A stretch of 64,000 nucleotides of DNA from IMG/VR virus record IMGVR_UViG_2049941000_000098; one strand, written 5' to 3'. The stretch is from an uncultured virus (IMG/VR IMGVR_UViG_2049941000_000098). Lineage: Duplodnaviria; Heunggongvirae; Uroviricota; Caudoviricetes. The notes under the pieces were generated by a model, which saw only the letters and a program-made list of their open reading frames with translations, did not search any database and was not told where the DNA came from. Position 1 is the stretch's first letter, and each line of letters opens with the position of its first letter. Below, piece by piece: positions 4,051 to 35,249 of this stretch. The translations under genes and the position numbers were made by a program.

Positions 4051-6424
4051 TTCGTCATGTATGGTACATGCAAATTTGACGTTCGCCGCCCAATCTGCGT
4101 CGGTGTCAAACAACCGTTTGAATTTACACAAATCGATTCGGATAATATCCGCGCCCGTGTTTTTGTTCACGAACCCCTGATTGTCGTACATCTGCATGTC
4201 GGTTATCTTCGTACACGAACCGACGGGAACTGTTTTTCCTTGTTTCAAACACCAACTGATAGAACGTAACCGAACCCGTTTGTGACGGCGGAACGAAACC
4301 CTGAATTTGTCACGCCGCGCATTATATAGTACGTTGTACCCGAATATCGACGCGACCGAACGTAACGACACCGCCGCGTTGTAATCCGCTGAAAACCAAT
4401 GTCGGGTCAACGCAAGTTTGAACAACGCGCTGTTCAACGTCACGTTGTCGTCCTTTATTTCCGTGTCACGCTTGCACAACATCACGAACAACGACGCGCA
4501 TTCGCCCGACGGACGGAACACGAATCGGTTGAACCGCCNNNNNNNNNNGTTTCTTTCGTAGTTCAGCCAACCAAACGCGTTTTTTTATACCGTTGCGCAA
4601 CGCCGCGACCTTCGGTGCTTTTTTATTACCATACACAAACGAATGGTTTTCGTCGCATATCATCCATTCCCCGCGTCTGAACAAACAGAACAACGGTTCG
4701 GATTCCCCACGGTGTGTCGGTATCAACAAACCGCCGTGAACGTCTTTCAATCTTCGACCGACGACGGATTCCATACGGACAGCCGAATGTTCGGTTTCCA
4801 AATGTCCCGACAACGGGGTGCATCCCTGTATCGGGGAATTGCAAGCACAACGGTCTGCCGCGCGGTAATCACCCCTTTGATACGAATCGAACAACATACG
4901 GGGTCGCCCGAACAACGTCGATACATAACCGTTTTTGCGTGCCTTATCGACCATCCGTTTACGCCACTCGTCCAAACCGCCCAAATGGTTGAAATATTTA
5001 GCCAACATTTCGCGGCATTCATCCACAGTTATTTTCAAACGTTTCGCGATGGAATATTCCGTCGCCCCGTATATCACACTGAAATTCAACTGTTTTATCC
5101 GTGAACGGCTTTCGTCGTCCGTTTGTCCGAACATCGTTTCGGCGATATGTCGGTGAATATCCTTTCCCTCGCGTATTGGTTCGATAAGGTTTTCGTCCTT
5201 ACTGAAACATGCCGCCAACACCATTTCCTCGCCGCTGTAGTCGGCGGACACCCAAACATACCCGTCGGGACATACGAACGCGTCACGCAATCCGCCTTTG
5301 CATTTAACCGTTTTGACCGCGTTGTCGGGGTTGTCGTCAATCGTGAAACCGATTCCGTCATCGGTTCGGTGGACATAACGCACAACGTCTTTTTTCTCAA
5401 CCGCCTGGATGTTGAAATCGTTGAAAAATGTGTTACCCTTCGCGCCGCCTGACGACAAACGACCTGTCGCCGCCGTCACCGTGGAATATCGGACGCGCAT
5501 CGTGTCCCCGTAATCCAACATCTTTTCAAGCGTGGTTCGGTACACGGACAGTTCCCCGTAACGTTTCACCAACATAACAACGGGATGAGCGGAATCCTTC
5601 ACGGCGTAATCCGAAAGGCTTTCCACCGTCCCGATACATTCACGCACCAAATCAAGACGTTTCACGGGGTTGTCGATTTCCGCGTCATACCCCAACAATC
5701 CGCGTAGTTTGTATTTGATTTCGTCGATGTCGGTGTTCACGTTGTTCAATTCCTCCCGCACGCGTTCTTTCGATATTGGTAGTTCGGTGTTCTTACATAT
5801 CCAACGCACCACCTCATTTGATTCGTTATCCAATTGGTATATGTTGTGAATCATGTCATAGGTTTTCCAAACGTACCGTGCCAACATGATTGTCAACACC
5901 GTTTTCTGTGCCGCGAATATGAAAGCCACGTCGGGGTTGTGTTCCGCGAAATTCAATCGTTCGAGGTCGAGTTCGTAAATCGGAACGTCGGGGAAAAACA
6001 GATGCGCGTATTCGTTGCGTGTCGGACACGGTTTGTTGGTACACAGGTACAACATTATCTGTGTGTCGTGCGTGTGGTTCAAACCGCATCGGATTCCCTC
6101 TTTTTCAAGGAATGTGAACACGAAATCACGATTGTAAAAATAAACCCCGTTGTTGTCAATTATTTTCTGAACCAAAGCGAACGTCGGTTCGGTGTCGATG
6201 TTATTACCGACCGTGTGCCGTAACGGAATATAATACGATGTGATTCTGTCCCCGTCCAACACCGCGATTGACACCCCGACAATGGTGTCTTTATTGTAAT
6301 CGTAACCCGTTGTTTCGACATTCAACGCGACGGTATGCCCGTCGGTTTGTATCGACCGTAAATCGTCCGTGGTTTGGACGAGGTACAATGTGTGTTTGGT
6401 GTTGCTGTATTCGGTTTCTAACAT
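4051..6424 (-). CDS. polA: Family A DNA polymerase with degenerate 3'-5' exonuclease domain and an intein; 3' end in gap
   Basis: TGRLSS, motif A SADYSGEE, motif B RSRIKQLNFSVIYG, GYVSTLFGRPR, NSPIQG/TGADII and motif C TIHDE; ORF 4466..6424 and the 5' part of ORF 2725..4521 join across the gap at 4539-4548. Confidence 0.92.
4159..4822 (-). mobile_element. Intein in PolA (about 220 aa plus unknown gap length) with degenerate endonuclease remnant
   Basis: Interrupts conserved NSPIQG|TGADII; begins Cys (CTPLSG), block-B-like ICDENHSF, ends GFVNKN, followed by Thr+1. Confidence 0.85.
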
Positions 6425-10804: not shown

Positions 10805-11054
10805 TTATTCACCGAAAACGGCTTTTCTCAATTCTTCTTTTGTGGCAAAAACTTCGCTCTCGCATAGTTCTTTTAAATATGGCGAATCACAATCCCAAAA
10901 GTCATAATGAATTGTTGGCTTTGCCCACTCCAATACTGATTCGTTTCNNNNNNNNNNNNNNNNNNNNNNTGTCAATTTTGCAAACTTGCATACACGTTGG
11001 TCTGTTGTTGCTCATAAACCAAACCTCTTGTCCGATTGAAAATTTTGTTTCCAT
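10805..11054 (-). CDS. Hypothetical protein spanning a gap (not in ORF track)
   Basis: Manual translation METKFSIGQEVWFM...-gap-...EVFATKEELRKAVFGE-stop. Confidence 0.6.
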
Positions 11055-11429
11055 ATTACCATTTTTTAAAATCNNNNNNNNNNNNNNNNNNNNNNNNNNN
11101 NNNNNNNNNNNNNNNNNNNNNNNNNNNNNNNNNNNNNNNNNNNNNNNNNNNNNNNNNNNNNNNNNNNNNNNNNNNNNNNNNNNNNNNNNNNNNNNNNNNN
11201 NNNNNNNNNNNNNNNNNNNNNNNNNNNNNNNNNNNNNNNNNNNNNNNNNNNNNNNNNNNNNNNNNNNNNNNNNNNNNNNNNNNNNNNNNNNNNNNNNNNN
11301 NNNNNNNNNNNNNNNNNNNNNNNNNNNNNNNNNNNNNNNNNNNNNNNNNNNNNNNNNNNNNNNNNNNNNNNNNNNNNNNNNNNNNNNNNNNNNNNNNNNN
11401 NNNNNNNNNNNNNNNNNNNNNNNNNNNNN

Positions 11430-11583
11430 TGTAAAAATCGTCGTCGGTCGCGAAAATTATATGTTTCGACAATATGCTACCGTCAACGTCACGTTGGAAC
11501 AAAATCAAACACGATTTAAACTCCGCCGTCGGATAATGGCGTTTGAACCGCGCCAANNNNNNNNNNCGTTTTGTTGTTGTCAT
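11430..11583 (-). CDS. Hypothetical protein, partial
   Basis: MTTTK...LARFKRHYPTAEF..., runs into a gap. Confidence 0.4.
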
Positions 11584-11594
11584 AATTGTATGTT

Positions 11595-12182
11595 TTAAAA
11601 TTTATCCGCATATATATTGAACATATCTTCCAACCGTTTGTTAATGTCATCCAAGCGTTTATAATAATCTTCTTCATCCAAAACACGTAACCCTCCTTCT
11701 CTCATCACTAATCGTAATTGTTCTGATATTGAATGTTTTTTTACGTGTTTTCTTAATATTTCCATTTCGGATTCGACACGTTTATCGGTTTCATCAGGTT
11801 CGTAATGTTTTTCCCACAAATAATCTTCTTGTTGATTGGGTTCGTCCCATTCACTTACAATAACAATATTACCGTCATACTTATCTTTTGTTAGAAAAAG
11901 GTCATCATCGTCTTTTTCGTTTTTTTCTTCATATCCTTCCCCTATTCGTTCATCATCCACCTTACCCCTTACGGAATATTCCACACACCTTTCATATTTA
12001 TAGGCATTTTCAAAACCATCGTTGGGTGTTGTTATTTTAACTAAACCAATTATCGGCATATTGCACGAACAATCGGTGCATAAAGCGTCCCAACAAATGA
12101 TACGGACAGGTAAACCCTCTCTTGTTACAATACGGTATTCACCTGATTTCGCTTTTTCGATTTCAAATTTAACAAGTTTCAT
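11595..12182 (-). CDS. Hypothetical phage protein
   Basis: 195-aa ORF, VTREGLPVRIICWD...DLFL. Confidence 0.7.
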   Translation of the reverse strand: MKLVKFEIEKAKSGEYRIVTREGLPVRIICWDALCTDCSCNMPIIGLVKITTPNDGFENAYKYERCVEYSVRGKVDDERIGEGYEEKNEKDDDDLFLTKDKYDGNIVIVSEWDEPNQQEDYLWEKHYEPDETDKRVESEMEILRKHVKKHSISEQLRLVMREGGLRVLDEEDYYKRLDDINKRLEDMFNIYADKF

Positions 12183-12595: not shown

Positions 12596-12911
12596 TAGAT
12601 TTTAAATTCGTCCAACATCACACCGCAAATCAAATACGGTAAAACGGTTTTGAACGCGGCGACGTTGTTCACCGTACACAAACCGATGGTTTCCTTAATG
12701 ATACCTTCCCAATTTTGCCCCACAACCCACCACCAANNNNNNNNNNGGTGATTTTCCAATCGTTGTTTTTTGTGTTTTCAACAAATATGTTGTGGAATGG
12801 TAATTGTTTCATAAACCTGTTAAAAACGCGGACATATCCGTTTTTTTCAAACATTTCGTCGGTCAAATCCATTCTCGACAAATCGTTTTGTTGTTGTTTC
12901 GTTGTTTCCAT
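12596..12911 (-). CDS. Hypothetical protein (frame broken by gap)
   Basis: METTKQQQ...LTDEMFEKNGY; after the gap another frame reads ...YLICGVMLDEFKI-stop. Confidence 0.5.
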
Positions 12912-12930
12912 ATTGCCATTTTTTAAAAAT

Positions 12931-12974: not shown

Positions 12975-13001
12975 ATACAACATTTGTTACGAAAAAAAAA
13001 T

Positions 13002-13034
13002 AAAAAAATGCGGAAACACTTTCATGAATCCGCA
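13002..13034 (-). terminator. Probable intrinsic terminator
   Basis: tgcgga...tccgca stem followed by a T-run on the minus strand. Confidence 0.55.
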
Positions 13035-13077
13035 CCATCACACAAATAAAAAATATACTTATGAATTTGAAAAGGCT

Positions 13078-13834
13078 TTAATTAACATGTTTGCCGTCGG
13101 CGGTAAATTCCCAATCGTTACCGATAATGAAATCTTCAACAACTTCTTCGTCGTAACAACGGTCAATTTCACGTTCCCATTGGTTTCTTAACGCGTTACC
13201 CAAACCAGCAAAAAACGCACGAATACCTTTGGGTTTTTCTTCACCGCTTAACACATCGTCAATATATTGTGATACCGCTTCATCTGTGTACACACCTGTA
13301 AAATACCACGAATCTTTGTATTTGAAATTGTTTTTAACTATATTTAACCAATCGACAACGGTTTCGTAACTATCTTCGTCAAGAGAATACTCGTTGCTGA
13401 TATTCCANNNNNNNNNNNNNNNNNNNNNNNNNNNNNNNNNNNNNNNNNNNNNNNNNNNNNNNNNNNNNNNNNNNNNNNNNNNNNNNNNNNNNNNNNNNNN
13501 NNNNNNNNNNNNNNNNNNNNNNNNNNNNNNNNNNNNNNNNNNNNNNNNNNNNNNNNNNNNNNNNNNNNNNNNNNNNNNNNNNNNNNNNNNNNNNNNNNNN
13601 NNNNNNNNNNNNNNNNNNNNNNNNNNNNNNNNNNNNNNNNNNNNNNNNNNNNNNNNNATCATCTTTGGTTTTTAAACCCATTTGTTCGGTGATTGCTTTA
13701 GACGTTTCAATAAAATCGTCGTTCACCCATTCACATTCTTGTTCACCAACCTCTTGGGTGTATAGTTTTAAAACGTTTTGTTTTGCCTGTTCGTCCAATT
13801 CATCGAACGCGTATAATTCAATACTTCGTGCCAT
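13078..13834 (-). CDS. Acidic hypothetical phage protein spanning a gap
   Basis: MARSIELYAFDELDEQAK... joined to ...FIIGNDWEFTADGKHVN. Confidence 0.65.
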
Positions 13835-13855
13835 AATCGTATTTATATTTAATGT

Positions 13856-14062
13856 TTAAGACCATCTGTTAATTTCACTCAATGCCTCACTCCACGCATT
13901 ATACGCTTGAAACATCAAATCAACCGCCTTTGTTGGAAATCCCAAACTATCCGCGTAATCCGCAAGATTTTGTATTTGGTCGCCCATCATTTCGGCACGT
14001 CCAATAAATCTTTCGGCTTCGGGGTCAAAACCCTCGTAATCATTATCTTTTATCCGTTTCAT
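13856..14062 (-). CDS. Small protein with MKRIKD leader
   Basis: 68-aa ORF. Confidence 0.65.
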   Translation of the reverse strand: MKRIKDNDYEGFDPEAERFIGRAEMMGDQIQNLADYADSLGFPTKAVDLMFQAYNAWSEALSEINRWS

Positions 14063-14344
14063 ACCCTTACTGTTTTTTAGATTTGTTATACATAATATTC
14101 AATATCTTGAGTCTCGTAATCTGCAAAATATTCATTATCATATTGTGCAACACTATCGGCAGGTATATACGCTTCGCCATCAAAATCAAAACGACCCTGT
14201 TTTAATATGTTTGATAATTCGTTTTGACCGTTACCATTCATAATAGCATCCGCTTCTTCAGGGGTGCAATCCAAACTAATACCGATACGCATCCATATCG
14301 TTCTGTTTTCGTTCATATCCTTACTGTTTTTTAGATTTATTGTA
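14060..14344 (-). repeat. 31-bp imperfect direct repeat (14060-14090 / 14314-14344) flanking a single gene
   Basis: tacaataaatctaaaaaacagtaaggatatg vs tataacaaatctaaaaaacagtaagggtatg, 28/31 identical. Confidence 0.9.
14086..14316 (-). CDS. Small acidic hypothetical protein (cargo between direct repeats)
   Basis: 76-aa ORF. Confidence 0.7.
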   Translation of the reverse strand: MNENRTIWMRIGISLDCTPEEADAIMNGNGQNELSNILKQGRFDFDGEAYIPADSVAQYDNEYFADYETQDIEYYV

Positions 14345-16478
14345 ATAGTTGTATTTAGTTCCGTAAATAAGAACCGAGCCTGACGGTACGACTTTCGGCA
14401 TAGTCGTCAGTCCCTCCTGTGCGAACATCGCGCCGCCCTCAACGCCCTCGTCCTTGATAAATTCAGGTACGTCGTCGCACACCCAACATTCGTCGGACAT
14501 CTTGCGTTTGTAGAATTTACTGTCGATGACACCCAGGTTGTTGGTTTTCGCCGCCGCCGAATAATAGTCGTCCGCAGGTACGCAATTGTCGGAAATGATT
14601 TTCTCGACATTTGCATCCTCGGCGTTCAATTGTTCCGCAACCTTTTCGCTTGAACCCATAATCGGAATCCAATTCTGTACCGTGCCGTTCTCACATTCCA
14701 CTTGGATTACGGGCGACAAATCACCATAGTTTACCGCCGCCGCCGACAAACATNNNNNNNNNNNNNNNNNNNNNNNNNNNNNNNTCACTGTCCGATATTT
14801 TGAAATTGTATTTTTTCAATATCGGTAATTTATCCTTCAACGCGTCGATAACCTTGTTGGCGCGTTTGTCACCGTTGACCAACAGTTTTGCCAACAAAAC
14901 AGCGTTGCGTTCGGAATCGTGGACGTTCAATTTTATTTTGTCAACCTTGTCCTTGTCCTCGTCCTCATCGTCCTCATCCTCGTCATCGTCCTCGTCGTTG
15001 AATATGTCTTCCGATTCACCGTTGTCAAGTTCGTCACCCTCGCCGCTTTCGGTTTCAATATCCATATTCAGGTTGTCATCACCCGATTCGTCACCGTTCA
15101 ATTCCTCATTAATCGATTTTTCTTCGGGGTTAATGTCGTCAACCGACAATTCCGACAGGGCTTCAAGTTCGGATGTGTCACCGTTGGCGAACGCCTCCAA
15201 TGCCGAACCCAAACTTTCAAGCAATGTTTTTCCGTCACCGCCGTTACCCGATTCCTCACCCAAACGTTCGTCGATTTGGTCGATAATGTCGTCTTTCACT
15301 TTCTGTGTGTGCGCCGATTTTTGCATCGATATTTCGGTCACGGAATGTGCGAACGCCCTGTCCATGCAATCTTTGACCCGCACGCGTTCGCCGCAACGTT
15401 TAGTGTAACGTTCGACAATATCGTTCATTGAATCACTTACATTCATCAGGCGACCGTTCAACATGTCGTCAGCAAGGTTGTATGCGTCGTCGATAATCAG
15501 GGCTTCCACGTCGTCAAACGATTCTTTCACCGTGTCTTCAACGCGTTTGCGTTCAATGCGTCGTTCGGGACGCGGGAATTGTTTTCGATTGTCAGCGATG
15601 CGTTTTGACGGTTGTGGACGCTTTCTTTGTGAATCACCGAGATTCAACTTGACATCGGGTGTTTCGTCTTCGGTTTCGTTATCCAAATCATCCCCGCCGT
15701 CAATATCCAAATCATCACCGCCGTCAACATCCAAATCGTCGGATTCGGGTTCGTCATCACCAACAACACCGTTATCTTCGTCGATGGTGTCACCGAACGC
15801 GATTGTCAACGCGGTCTGTAACGATTCGGTTTCAAATTTGTTATCCTCAAGAAAATCATATAGAATGTTCAACTCCTCTTCGTCGGCGGTCAGGTCAAGT
15901 TCGTTGTCGATGACCTTGTTGATTATGTCAATCACAGCCGCTTCCTGTGGGTCGCTTTCATTCAATATGTCTTTGTATGATTCCAACATACGCAGTTCGT
16001 CGTCTTTGCGCGAATACGCGTATTTTGTCAATAGGTCGTTGATGACATACAAATCCTGAATCTCGATTTTACGGTTCAAATCACGGCGTTCCAATTCGCC
16101 GCTATCCAAATCGTCACGAACCTTCACAGCGTTAAGGGCGCGTAACACCTTGCGACGTTCCCCGTCCGACAAACGCGACAGGAATTTGCGGCGTTCCGCG
16201 TTCCCCATATCCGCGATTTCGTCAATCGCGTGGCTGTCCAACACAATGTATTGTGTCTTTTGCGGACGGTCAACCTGTGTAATCCGTGAAATGCGTGACG
16301 GTTTGTAGTGTGACTTGTCGCTTATGCGCGACAATGTTTTATTGTTGTTTTTGATTGCGTTAATCGCGTCGTCAAGCACGGTTCTTTTTTGCCGCACGAC
16401 TTCAAGTCCGCGTGCAGAACCCTCGGTGCGTTCTTCACCGTTGCGGATTTTTACCAAACCTGTTAGAAAATCACTCAT
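14321..16478 (-). CDS. Large acidic protein, putative prohead scaffold/core protein (two ORFs joined across a gap)
   Basis: D/E-rich low-complexity tracts, DDLDxDGG repeats, many [KR][IV]xD motifs; own promoter. Confidence 0.55.
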
Positions 16479-16503
16479 TTCGTTTTTAATTTATAAACGT
16501 TTA

Positions 16504-16534
16504 CAAAAATATGTTTTTTATGTTACAATTCAAA
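16504..16534 (-). promoter_or_regulatory. Bacteroidota sigmaA-type promoter
   Basis: TTTG-N19-TATTTTTG upstream of the 16478 start. Confidence 0.65.
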
Positions 16535-16539
16535 ATTTT

Positions 16540-17871
16540 TTAGAACGGGGGCAAATCCTCAAAATCACCGTGCATTTCGGTAAACGAATAGTCAATATCG
16601 TTCATATCCGCCCTGTCAAACTTCTTACCCACCATCATAACCGACGGGGTGAATGACGTTTTGAACGGAACAGGAATCGGAACACCAAGACGGTTTTTCA
16701 ACATAGACACTTTCGTTTCCTGTGTTATCTTCATCGCGTCCGACGTGTATAGGAAAACACAATATGACGACGAACGTTCGACCTCGTTCAGGTCGGCAAT
16801 AGCCTGTAGGTCGTACTGACCCTCACGACGTATCGCGCGTCGGTTGCCCTCGCGGTTGCACTGAACCGCCCACACCATCACGATTTTCTCACCGTTTTCG
16901 TTCTTGAATGTCTTCGCCGCCGACGTTAATTGTTTCAGGATAATATTGCCCGTTTCGGGGTACAATAGTTCCAACTGCCCCACATGGTCAACAATCACCA
17001 TATCCAAACCGCCCATCTTACGTTCCGCCGCCTTGAATAGTTTGTTTATCTTACGGTAATCGGTCATCACTTTTTTTGTGATTTTGGATTCGTCGATAAT
17101 CAACAGGTTGGGGACGACATCACGTTTGAAATCGGGTTCAAGGGAAACAACTAATTCCCCGACGGACGAATCCAACGTGTGATGTTCCATATTGTGTACG
17201 TCAACCGCCAACTCACGCTCGAACATATACCGCGTTTCAAACTGTTTCCACACCATGTCGGGCGGCAACTCAATCGACAATATCATCACTTTCTTACCGC
17301 TTGCGATGTTCGTGTACGCGGTGCTGTCACACAACGTCGTCTTTCCGTGTCCCGTGAACGCGCAGAATGAAACCACCGTGCCACGTTGGAATCCGTTTGT
17401 GGTTTGGTCAAGTTCGTCGATTCCCGTCATCAACCCGCTTTCAAGCGGCTTGTCAACGTCACCGTACAGTTCGGGTTTGCAATCGTCGAAATTGAACTCC
17501 GCGTCGGTTGTCGTTTCCGTGTCGTTCACCAACCGTGACAACCCGTTAAGCAAATCCGACGAGGTTGACGTTTCATTGATGACCTTTGTGGCGTTTTTTA
17601 AAAGGGTCTGACGCAAATAGAAGTCCACCATCGATTTGTAGTGCAGGACTATTTCCGCTTCCGTCTTGGCTATCGATTCGGGTTTGTCGTACAGGTTCGC
17701 GAAATAATCCGCCGACGGGTAATTCCCGTGTTCCGCACATTTCAAACAGTAATCCGCGACATTCTTGTCTTTTTGATTGATAAACGGAAGTGACGACATG
17801 TTGTACAACATATCGTCAATAGGGATTGACTGTTTCAACCCCGCGATTGAATAGAAGAATTTTGCTATCAT
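16540..17871 (-). CDS. dnaB: DnaB-like replicative helicase
   Basis: MTGIDELD..TNGF, Walker A AFTGHGKTT, ILSIEL, VIVDHVGQL, QCNRE, LKNR; ATG at 17871. Confidence 0.9.
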   Translation of the reverse strand: MIAKFFYSIAGLKQSIPIDDMLYNMSSLPFINQKDKNVADYCLKCAEHGNYPSADYFANLYDKPESIAKTEAEIVLHYKSMVDFYLRQTLLKNATKVINETSTSSDLLNGLSRLVNDTETTTDAEFNFDDCKPELYGDVDKPLESGLMTGIDELDQTTNGFQRGTVVSFCAFTGHGKTTLCDSTAYTNIASGKKVMILSIELPPDMVWKQFETRYMFERELAVDVHNMEHHTLDSSVGELVVSLEPDFKRDVVPNLLIIDESKITKKVMTDYRKINKLFKAAERKMGGLDMVIVDHVGQLELLYPETGNIILKQLTSAAKTFKNENGEKIVMVWAVQCNREGNRRAIRREGQYDLQAIADLNEVERSSSYCVFLYTSDAMKITQETKVSMLKNRLGVPIPVPFKTSFTPSVMMVGKKFDRADMNDIDYSFTEMHGDFEDLPPF

Positions 17872-34537: not shown

Positions 34538-35152
34538 TCAAATATTTATCGGTGTCAACGNNNNNNNNNNTGTCGTGAACACCCCGATTTCGTTGTATAT
34601 CTGTGCCTCGGTGATTCCTTTCGGGTTGACCCAAATGTTGATTTTCTTAACCAACGTGTCACCGATGTCGTCCGTGTAATCCGACATGAACAATTGTGAC
34701 TGCCAACCGAAATCAACCCACCGCAACGCGCCCTTCGCGTCAGCCTGTGAACGGTCTTCCCCGATTCCGACGGACGTTAACCGAAACTGAACGTCAACCA
34801 CGTCCTGTTCGTCCTTTGTCGGGAAATGGATTGTGATGTACGGGTGTTTGGCTATACCGAACCGCAGTTTGCTTGCGATGGTTATCGCCTGACCTTGGTT
34901 TTCGACAAGTATTTTCCCCGTGTATTTTTGTTCGTATGACACAAACGCCGACCGTTCGATTCCGTCACGTATGACGAACTGTTTGTTGTTCGACCATTCC
35001 GCCGATTGGCGTTGGTAGAAGAACGCGGGGAATTTTGTGACCTCGCGCATCATTTCAAATATGTTGTCGTCGGTCGCGTATGTCGCGATTTTGATGTTCG
35101 GAAAAATCGAACTAATCAGATTCAATATGCCCGCCTCGTATTCGTAAATCAT
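34538..35152 (-). CDS. Putative tail terminator/neck protein
   Basis: Upstream of the sheath gene; FPAFFYQR; TATATTTG promoter at 35173-35180. Confidence 0.5.
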   Translation of the reverse strand: MIYEYEAGILNLISSIFPNIKIATYATDDNIFEMMREVTKFPAFFYQRQSAEWSNNKQFVIRDGIERSAFVSYEQKYTGKILVENQGQAITIASKLRFGIAKHPYITIHFPTKDEQDVVDVQFRLTSVGIGEDRSQADAKGALRWVDFGWQSQLFMSDYTDDIGDTLVKKINIWVNPKGITEAQIYNEIGVFTTXXXXLTPINI

Positions 35153-35181: not shown

Positions 35182-35249
35182 AAAAAAAACACGAACCGTT
35201 TGTTGATTCGTGTTTTTGATATTCATTAACCGTTTGTTGATTCGTGTTT
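35182..35249 (-). terminator. Intrinsic terminator with a 22-bp tandem duplication of one arm
   Basis: aaaaacacgaa...ttcgtgttttt hairpin; aaccgtttgttgattcgtgttt at 35194-35215 and 35228-35249. Confidence 0.7.

Follow-up and report, generated by a model that had tools for sequence, protein, structure and literature searches.

Why should a small phage gene be bordered on both sides by the same letters, which comprise the last codons of the gene upstream, a stop codon, a short spacer and the start of a gene? The question is raised by a locus in a stretch of 64,000 nucleotides (nt) from an uncultured virus of the Caudoviricetes (IMG/VR record IMGVR_UViG_2049941000_000098), the whole of which is called the window below. 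All genes of the region lie on the minus strand, and coordinates are given on the plus strand. There, a gene of 76 amino acids (aa), referred to here as the cargo, stands between a large acidic gene and a gene of 68 aa, and each of its two boundaries lies in one copy of a 33-nt direct repeat. On balance, we hold it probable that the repeat is the recombination scar of a donor patch, kept by overlapping signals, and not a mobile element. The parts of the locus are as follows.

14321..16478, minus strand: large acidic gene of about 750 aa, ending in ...YNYYNKSKKQ, with its stop at 14321-14323
14312..14344, minus strand: repeat copy U, in which the last 7 codons and stop of the large gene, its functional 3' end, are followed by GGAT and the ATGAA of the cargo
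14086..14316, minus strand: the cargo, an intact 76-aa gene taken from the list of open reading frames (ORFs)
14058..14090, minus strand: repeat copy D, an untranslated and apparently vestigial tail with stop, GGGT and the ATGAA of the 68-aa gene; it holds the cargo stop
13856..14062, minus strand: the 68-aa gene, from the same ORF list, which occurs in relatives without the cargo

The duplicated gene boundary

A repeat finder delimited copies U and D as a 33-nt direct repeat with 30 of 33 positions identical (91%) and a start-to-start distance of 254 nt. The mismatched pairs are 14064/14318, 14085/14339 and 14088/14342, and the longest perfect run is 20 nt (14065-14084 = 14319-14338). Counted over 14060-14090 against 14314-14344, the copies agree at 28 of 31 positions, the figure given by an initial annotation made from the letters of the window. 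Read on the minus strand, both copies give Y-N-K-S-K-K-Q, TAA, a 4-nt spacer and ATGAA. Two of the mismatches are coding (TAC/TAT and AAT/AAC), both of them synonymous third-position transitions, and the third falls in the spacer, which is GGAT in copy U and GGGT in copy D. The large-gene stop and the cargo start are separated by these 4 nt, and the stop of the cargo, TAA at 14086-14088, lies inside copy D in a frame different from that of YNKSKKQ. The first description of the locus, with YNKSKKQ-stop-GGAT-ATG before the 76-aa gene, YNKSKKQ-stop-GGGT-ATG after it, silent coding differences and a cargo stop overlapping the repeat, holds in all these respects.

The repeat is unique within the window. 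A 25-nt pattern with up to three mismatches matched twice on both strands of the 64 kb, at U and D alone (0 expected from 100 shuffles), and a search with the 20-nt core again returned U and D alone. No inverted repeat or hairpin was found at either copy by the repeat finder or by RNA folding, and the RNA folds of the two copies are weaker than those of shuffled sequences (z = +1.14 and +1.26), that is, the copies are unstructured. With neither inverted repeats or a hairpin at the repeat nor a promoter-terminator unit, the term "cassette", in the sense of a self-contained mobile unit, finds no support at the locus.

Presence of the repeat in independent samples

The contigs of four public runs (X2, X5, X6 and X7) were compared with positions 13658-14753, bearing in mind that contigs cannot show rare variants. 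X2 has 0 differences and is probably the source sample, hence not independent. In X5, which belongs to another study, both copies are bridged: a 417-nt contig (13831-14247) holds the 68-aa gene, copy D and part of the cargo, and a 152-nt contig (14231-14382) holds the cargo start, copy U and the end of the large gene. X6, from sheep, has the large gene, copy U, the cargo and copy D in one 5184-nt contig, which matches 14055-14753 with 10 differences and passes into unlike sequence beyond copy D. X7 contains pieces of all three genes, with neither copy bridged.

These contigs bear on the possibility, already raised in the initial annotation, that the assembly is collapsed or chimeric. A mis-joined scaffold of co-occurring strains could have made a duplicated junction, and the window scaffold is indeed gap-rich (52 N runs); in the probable source sample, the assembly graph breaks at 14354, and a 92-nt contig at 14325-14416 has, at 14357, the letter of a related phage contig (L001, introduced below). 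However, the contigs of two other studies, X5 and X6, carry the same structure, and other contigs encode an identical 76-aa protein. The repeat is therefore not an assembly artefact, and an artefactual origin is extremely improbable. In the contigs of the four runs there is also no joint that skips 14086-14316 and no insertion or deletion, with the limit that rare deletion forms would escape contigs.

Different genes behind the same large gene

One relative, L001, is a 142,338-nt IMG/VR phage contig with terminal repeats. The large gene of the window is interrupted by an N run (14754-14784), and over the 143 aa after this run L001 is 94% identical. In L001, the same tail, stop, GGAT and ATGAA lead straight into a gene of 188 aa, and the 76-aa and 68-aa proteins have no match anywhere in the L001 record, even at E ≤ 10. 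L005, a 1685-nt metagenome contig with 85% identity, ends its large gene in YNKNKENK, and a conserved terminator block follows directly after the stop, then unrelated small genes. X2 has, separate from the contig with the window-type junction, a second one in which the L001-type gene follows copy U (loose end at 14312), so that both configurations co-occur in one sample. In X6, the 30 letters beyond copy D translate, in our own reading, as M-K-R-Q-I-K-D-G-A-G-A-G; over its first 7 or so codons this gene, which has one codon more, is similar to the 68-aa gene, after which the two diverge. At least four different genes are thus joined to the same stop-spacer-ATGAA, namely the 76-aa gene, the 68-aa gene, the 188-aa gene of L001 and the X6 gene. 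The locus is best explained as a hypervariable gene-insertion site, of which five states are seen or presumed, and its source as a rumen phage of roughly 140 kb.

Genomes with the large gene and the 68-aa gene but without the cargo probably exist as well. The 68-aa cluster occurs on 11 contigs, including ones of 147,688, 33,632 and 19,043 nt, and the 76-aa cluster on 3, the longest of 5184 nt. The large-protein entries P0178, P0179 and P0181 have longest contigs of 19,043, 33,632 and 147,688 nt, and the entries P0154, P0153 and P0002 of the 68-aa cluster have longest contigs of exactly these lengths in the same order; the P0153 protein is identical to that of the window. From these matching sizes we infer three cargo-free genomes, in which the large gene and the 68-aa gene would be adjacent.

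Other searches added little to this set. No match to 13000-17000 was obtained by blastn among 50,697 phage records, and a scan of viral contigs with the 68-aa protein returned no relative. With an alignment of the large protein, viral contigs yielded the contig of L001 and no other, and genome contigs yielded one contig of 2975 nt (L010) that ends inside the large gene, without downstream DNA.

L001 itself contains a second, partial trace. With up to three mismatches, the 20-nt core occurs at 2 sites in its 142 kb (reversed control, 0), at the end of the large gene and at 5045-5064 (18/20), before a 44-aa ORF located behind the 188-aa gene. Likewise duplicated is the 10-nt beginning of the terminator block (AACGCCTTTT), which stands at 5009-5018 after the 188-aa gene and at 5195-5204 after the 44-aa ORF. 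Judged from these letters, a partial terminator start and then a partial tail, placed between two stacked genes, may be what an unequal joining of two single-gene versions would leave.

A probable start signal inside the coding tail

Why a coding tail should be kept in two copies can be approached from the gene starts of the window. We collected 67 minus-strand starts by a simple rule, taking non-overlapping ATG ORFs of at least 70 aa, adding the 68-aa gene manually and leaving out an ATG internal to the large gene. The motif T[TA]AAA begins at -20 to -12, mostly at -17 to -14, in 28 of the 67; among 5000 random positions, the share is 3.4%. At -14, -13, -12 and -11, A occurs in 38, 47, 41 and 35 starts, respectively; T occurs at -1 in 38, and ATGAA opens 14 of the genes. 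The signal has no Shine-Dalgarno-like peak of G, and A is also seen at -6, -4 and -3. In Flavobacterium johnsoniae, which does without Shine-Dalgarno sequences, A is over-represented from -14 to -11, and A-12 and A-13 raise the translation of a reporter (PMC6847099).

Both repeat copies have A at -16 to -11 and T at -1, and so fit the genome-wide signal; the proposal of the initial annotation that the duplication gives the cargo and the 68-aa gene the same initiation context is borne out to this extent. The repeat could be a mere generic gene-start motif, a candidate that was rejected because near-matches to the 20-nt core are confined to this locus, with no further one in the 64 kb of the window or elsewhere than in this region of the 142 kb of L001.

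When the C-terminal 156 residues of L001 were compared with a set of 5.8 billion proteins, 32 clusters were obtained. From one to another, the large protein differs in its last 3-7 residues (SKKQ, NKKQ, RKNK, MNK, AKKKENN and others), which nevertheless stay rich in K and N. The corresponding DNA is A-rich, and the tail of the large gene therefore probably doubles as the Shine-Dalgarno-less start region of the next gene. An insertion that preserves both the end of the large protein and the translation of the next gene would then have to duplicate the tail. The start signals are Bacteroidota-like, and the truncated contig L010 was binned in a rumen metagenome-assembled genome (MAG) of the Paludibacteraceae; the host may thus belong to the phylum Bacteroidota.

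Mosaic ancestry of the large gene and origin of copy D

The large gene is not of one piece. Sliding identity between the window and L001 is 72-88% from 14752 to about 14450 and 95-98% from there to 14312, which defines one more feature.

14312..14445, minus strand: L001-like tract at the 3' end of the large gene, about 98% identical to L001, as against about 80% upstream

This tract covers the last 135 nt or so, and the homology stops exactly at ATGAA. Over the 441 nt of the large gene that were compared with L001 there are 63 mismatches, 52 of them at third codon positions. The large protein of the window is closest to P0178 and P0179, with 87% identity over the N-terminal 564 aa and 96% and 95%, respectively, over the last 143 aa, and its tail has KVVPSGS as in L001, where P0178 and P0179 have MEIPTGS. 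A P0178/P0179-like upstream part is thus combined with an L001-like tail, and the large gene of the window is therefore a recombinant, with a 3' end of other ancestry. Since the cargo-free genomes carry the MEIPTGS tail, they are not simple products of a deletion between U and D in the window type.

A history that would account for these observations begins with a resident arrangement of large gene, 4-nt spacer and 68-aa gene. The donor segment would have consisted of the last 130 nt or so of an L001-like allele of the large gene together with the 76-aa gene after it, and would have replaced part of the resident tail. The left crossover would have been homologous (homeologous), within the large gene, in the nearly identical stretch upstream. 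The right crossover would have been illegitimate, at or beside the cargo stop codon, where TATAA can be read in two ways, as GTA TAA at the end of the cargo and as the Y-N codons TAT AAC of the resident tail. With a right crossover at this point, the resident tail would remain, and the last 7 codons, stop, spacer and ATG of the resident would be left as copy D. Only recombinants keeping copy D would survive, because the A-rich last codons would double as the start region of the next gene. As an outcome, the large gene would keep its C-terminus through copy U, the 68-aa gene would keep its own start context through copy D, and the cargo would take over the former start context of the resident gene.

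The differences between the copies are in keeping with such a history. They consist of two synonymous transitions and one spacer base, much as alleles of the large gene differ from one another, and would be synonymous because copy D is the leftover of a resident allele. An origin of copy D from another allele would explain them better than drift following a duplication.

The duplication might also have arisen within a single genome, the 76-aa gene having entered as a copy when the template was switched twice, or a break was staggered, at ATGAA and TATAA, which would duplicate 33 nt; copy U would later have drifted or been overwritten by exchange with an L001-like phage. We hold this to be unlikely. 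Both junctions do fall on a few letters that start and stop contexts have in common, ATGAA is a ready microhomology, as it begins 14 of the 67 genes, window-type and L001-type phages co-occur in one run, and the L001-like tract could be a later event. However, this course needs two illegitimate events and a later exchange, whereas the donor patch needs one illegitimate event. Moreover, the right end of the L001-like tract is exactly the left junction of the cargo, which would otherwise be a coincidence and is expected if tail and cargo arrived together.

Several points weigh against the donor patch or limit its force. None of the genomes sampled is the exact parent, as P0153 shares its contig size with P0179, whose tail is YNKNKKQ, and the tail in copy D, YNKSKKQ, is that of P0178. 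In the cargo-free genomes, the adjacency of the two genes is presumed and a D-like tail is predicted. The tract of 98% identity could stem from a later, unrelated exchange, and the duplication could then have arisen in situ; two synonymous changes out of two are weak statistics, and the TATAA microhomology is read from the product. As for the start signal, the function assigned to the A-tract is deduced from how often a motif occurs and from published work on a different organism, and both copies have G, not A, at -3. The second core copy of L001 partly overlaps the generic gene-start motif, and the only hints at the host are the start signal and the one truncated contig in a Paludibacteraceae MAG.

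Excision, exchange and comparison with known systems

According to the initial annotation, recombination between the copies would excise the cargo cleanly. On paper this is so, as a modelled crossover in the 20-nt core leaves both the YNKSKKQ stop and the 68-aa ORF intact; no excised form was seen among the contigs of the four runs, which would not show rare variants. A published parallel is found in the hyperplastic regions of T4-type phages, where small ORFans lie between copies of an expression signal, the so-called PeSL (promoter-early stem-loop) cassettes (Arbiol et al., 2010, PMC2839356). PeSLs are about 100 bp long, comprise a strong promoter and a terminator hairpin, and are scattered over hyperplastic regions, and mini-circles have been demonstrated for them. 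The likeness lies in small accessory genes of unknown function that are differentially present in relatives and bracketed by direct copies of an expression signal, in a recombination that would delete the gene cleanly, and in an inserted gene expressed from the duplicated signal. In line with it, the small ORFs differ between relatives, with L001 lacking the 76-aa and 68-aa genes and L005 and X6 differing again. In contrast to PeSLs, the present repeat is 33 nt long and unstructured, consists of coding tail, stop, spacer and start, occurs at one locus, and sits within an operon between a stop and a start codon, with no promoter and stem-loop of about 100 bp.

An active exchange of cassettes would make the repeat a PeSL-like recombination site, from which flanked genes would loop out as small circles and re-insert at any copy, with cargo being gained and lost frequently and reversibly. 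Four different genes after the same stop-spacer-ATGAA, a core that is duplicated in L001 too, the clean excision that is possible on paper, and the behaviour described for PeSL-flanked ORFans (PMC2839356) would suit such a site. On the other hand, perfect identity spans 20 nt only, the contigs of the four runs, in which rare forms would escape notice, hold no cargo-skipping joint to set beside the mini-circles of PeSLs, and the repeat is confined to one locus in the window and in L001, not scattered like PeSLs. The cargo-free relatives are not simple excision products, and no comparable boundary repeat accompanies the relatives of the cargo at other loci (0 of 2, L006 and L008). An active exchange is thus quite improbable. 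No recombinase was seen among the neighbours examined (a DnaB-like helicase and proteins without a family), with no dedicated search of the window for tyrosine recombinases. Equally doubtful is the thought that the A-rich coding tail is a dedicated landing pad, serving within about 30 nt as C-terminal codons, start region and recombination site at once. If true, accessory genes would have been repeatedly stacked, swapped and looped out, in a promoter-less minimal counterpart of PeSL or integron cassettes, and the second core copy of L001 and the four genes at the same ATGAA would be its traces.

Other kinds of element differ from the locus as well. There is no attC-like hairpin as in integron cassettes, with no inverted repeat near the copies and both of them unstructured. 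As regards transposons, insertion sequences (IS) and miniature inverted-repeat transposable elements (MITEs), the insert runs from the ATGAA of the cargo to its stop without terminal inverted repeats. Target-site duplications are typically 2-14 bp long and exact; here, the duplication is 33 nt with 3 mismatches, not short and exact. A classical moron is an extra gene between two phage genes with its own promoter and terminator. The cargo is likewise an extra gene of low GC content (0.36 vs 0.47-0.48 in the large gene) between genes that are probably adjacent in relatives, but unlike a moron it would rely on the operon and the duplicated start context. In a consensus scan, promoter-like sites (14 vs 8.8 expected) and terminator-like sites (8 vs 4.6 expected) gave the cargo no signals of its own, as the promoter-like site near it (14367-14339) and the terminator-like site inside it (14300-14283) are at chance level.

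Phage mosaicism, in the model associated with Hendrix, reportedly arises by illegitimate recombination, the joints falling where genes meet. Recombination of homeologous sequences by lambda Red has also been described (Martinsohn et al., 2008, PMC2327257). The locus shares with such mosaicism a novel joint exactly at gene boundaries, one crossover presumably placed in homology of about 80% identity, co-occurring relatives and preserved function. In most mosaic joints the replaced allele leaves no readable trace; here one seems to survive as copy D, which appears to have been retained since coding tail and start signal overlap. By this analysis, the locus would be most like a PeSL-flanked ORFan in outcome and an ordinary mosaic joint in origin. 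Gene gain in the hyperplastic regions of phages is usually inferred from presence and absence; here, the joint appears to keep a remnant of the replaced allele, from which likely parents, two crossover points and a reason for the remnant can be read. If the reading of the start signal is right, hosts that work without Shine-Dalgarno sequences would impose a constraint of their own, whereby the insertion of a gene into a tightly packed operon forces a duplication of the last codons of the gene upstream. The case would be one of ordinary phage mosaicism, unusually legible, and overturns no current view.

The cargo protein and its family

The cargo encodes an acidic protein with an isoelectric point of 4.05 and 16 D+E as compared with 4 K+R. 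Its GC content at third codon positions (GC3) is 0.28, whereas that of the large gene is 0.55-0.59 and that of the large gene and helicase together 0.55-0.62. The family comprises 230 representatives at E ≤ 1e-3 and 9 at 1e-10, and the next relative is 50% identical among 1.84 billion representatives. Its members are either stand-alone proteins of about 75 aa or the C-terminal domain of proteins of 110-360 aa. The cargo is full length relative to 42 relatives, with a C-terminus that aligns with the usual end of the family, and W8, G12, G47 and P52 are invariant across the 43 aligned sequences. AlphaFold2, run on the family alignment, predicts a beta-alpha-alpha-beta-alpha-beta fold with high confidence (predicted local distance difference test, pLDDT, of 97).

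One candidate explanation of its end, that ...EYYV was captured from the ...NYYN of the large gene, was rejected, as the cargo ends where its family ends; the stop is therefore native and the junction lies inside the shared TATAA. A terminator-like hairpin of 7 pairs within the first codons of the cargo (14283-14300, minus strand) is probably due to chance.

No family in Pfam, PHROGs, NCBIfam or PADLOC matches the cargo. It has no solved structural relative in Foldseek against the PDB (best E 2.5) or in VIA-align wide (best Z 2.4), and a profile search of the PDB gave a best E of 0.41. BFVD contains two viral matches, one uncharacterised and one annotated merely as "zinc finger domain protein", and a protein atlas places viral hypothetical clusters alone around the cargo. 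One phage record (31% identity, unannotated) and 0 plasmids were retrieved by tblastn, and a scan of viral contigs with the 76-aa protein gave just two short matches of 13-16 residues (L002 and L003). In L008, the family domain is fused C-terminally to an N-terminal domain that recurs in the next gene; a 30-nt repeat there was considered as a boundary repeat and rejected, being a protein motif shared by the two paralogous N-terminal domains. Near-identical phages gain and lose the cargo as an accessory gene, and any anti-host role is a guess. Its interest lies in a widespread family of confidently folding, uncharacterised phage proteins of about 75 aa that are hereby flagged as accessory, gained or lost between near-identical phages.

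The surrounding gene unit

The locus is best explained as part of a unit that runs from a promoter through the large gene and 0 to 3 small accessory genes to a conserved terminator. Its outer parts are listed here.

16504..16534, minus strand: promoter-like site (TTTG-N-TAnnTTTG) that precedes the large-gene ATG by 26 nt
13078..13834, minus strand: last gene of the unit, about 190 aa, with an N run at 13408-13657; homologue of the 188-aa gene of L001
13002..13034, minus strand: terminator-like hairpin and T run within an intergenic block that is conserved at the end of the unit in the window, L001 and L005

TTTG...TAnnTTTG is what we take to be the promoter consensus. Such sites are not enriched in the window (4 vs 2.26 expected), and the position alone is suggestive. 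The large gene comes after a DnaB-like helicase gene, and its counterpart in L001 is a single ORF of 764 aa (755 aa from the ATG taken as start). The large protein has no match above threshold in Pfam, PHROG, NCBIfam or PADLOC, so that the label "scaffold-like" given to it in the initial annotation finds no family behind it. The gene of about 190 aa belongs to phrog_10310 (function unknown). The hairpin at 13002-13034 was recognised from the sequence, the block found by blastn and a consensus hairpin; a simple terminator scan missed it because its loop exceeds the limit of the scan.

A terminator-plus-promoter-like block with a TATATTTG box is common to the window, L001 (5190-5360) and L005 (536-653). 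The block is contiguous in L001 and split in the window (13082-12944 and 12242-12193) around some 700 bp with genes of 80 and 128 aa, about 20 nt being present on both sides.

Other repeats in the window

A second boundary repeat of 27 nt (96% identical) was noted at 12902-12928 and 11045-11071, 1857 nt apart, with a weaker third copy at 11574-11600. In two different small genes, this repeat takes in the A-tract before the start, the ATG and the opening codons (M-E-T); an N run masks the left part of the copy at 11045-11071. Between 19430 and 21811, there are several direct repeats of 42-75 nt, 75-93% identical and 750-1280 nt apart, within coding sequence, and these probably come from paralogous neighbouring genes. 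Finally, a perfect 22-nt direct repeat with a spacing of 34 nt (35194-35215 and 35228-35249) lies just upstream of the gene starting at 35152.

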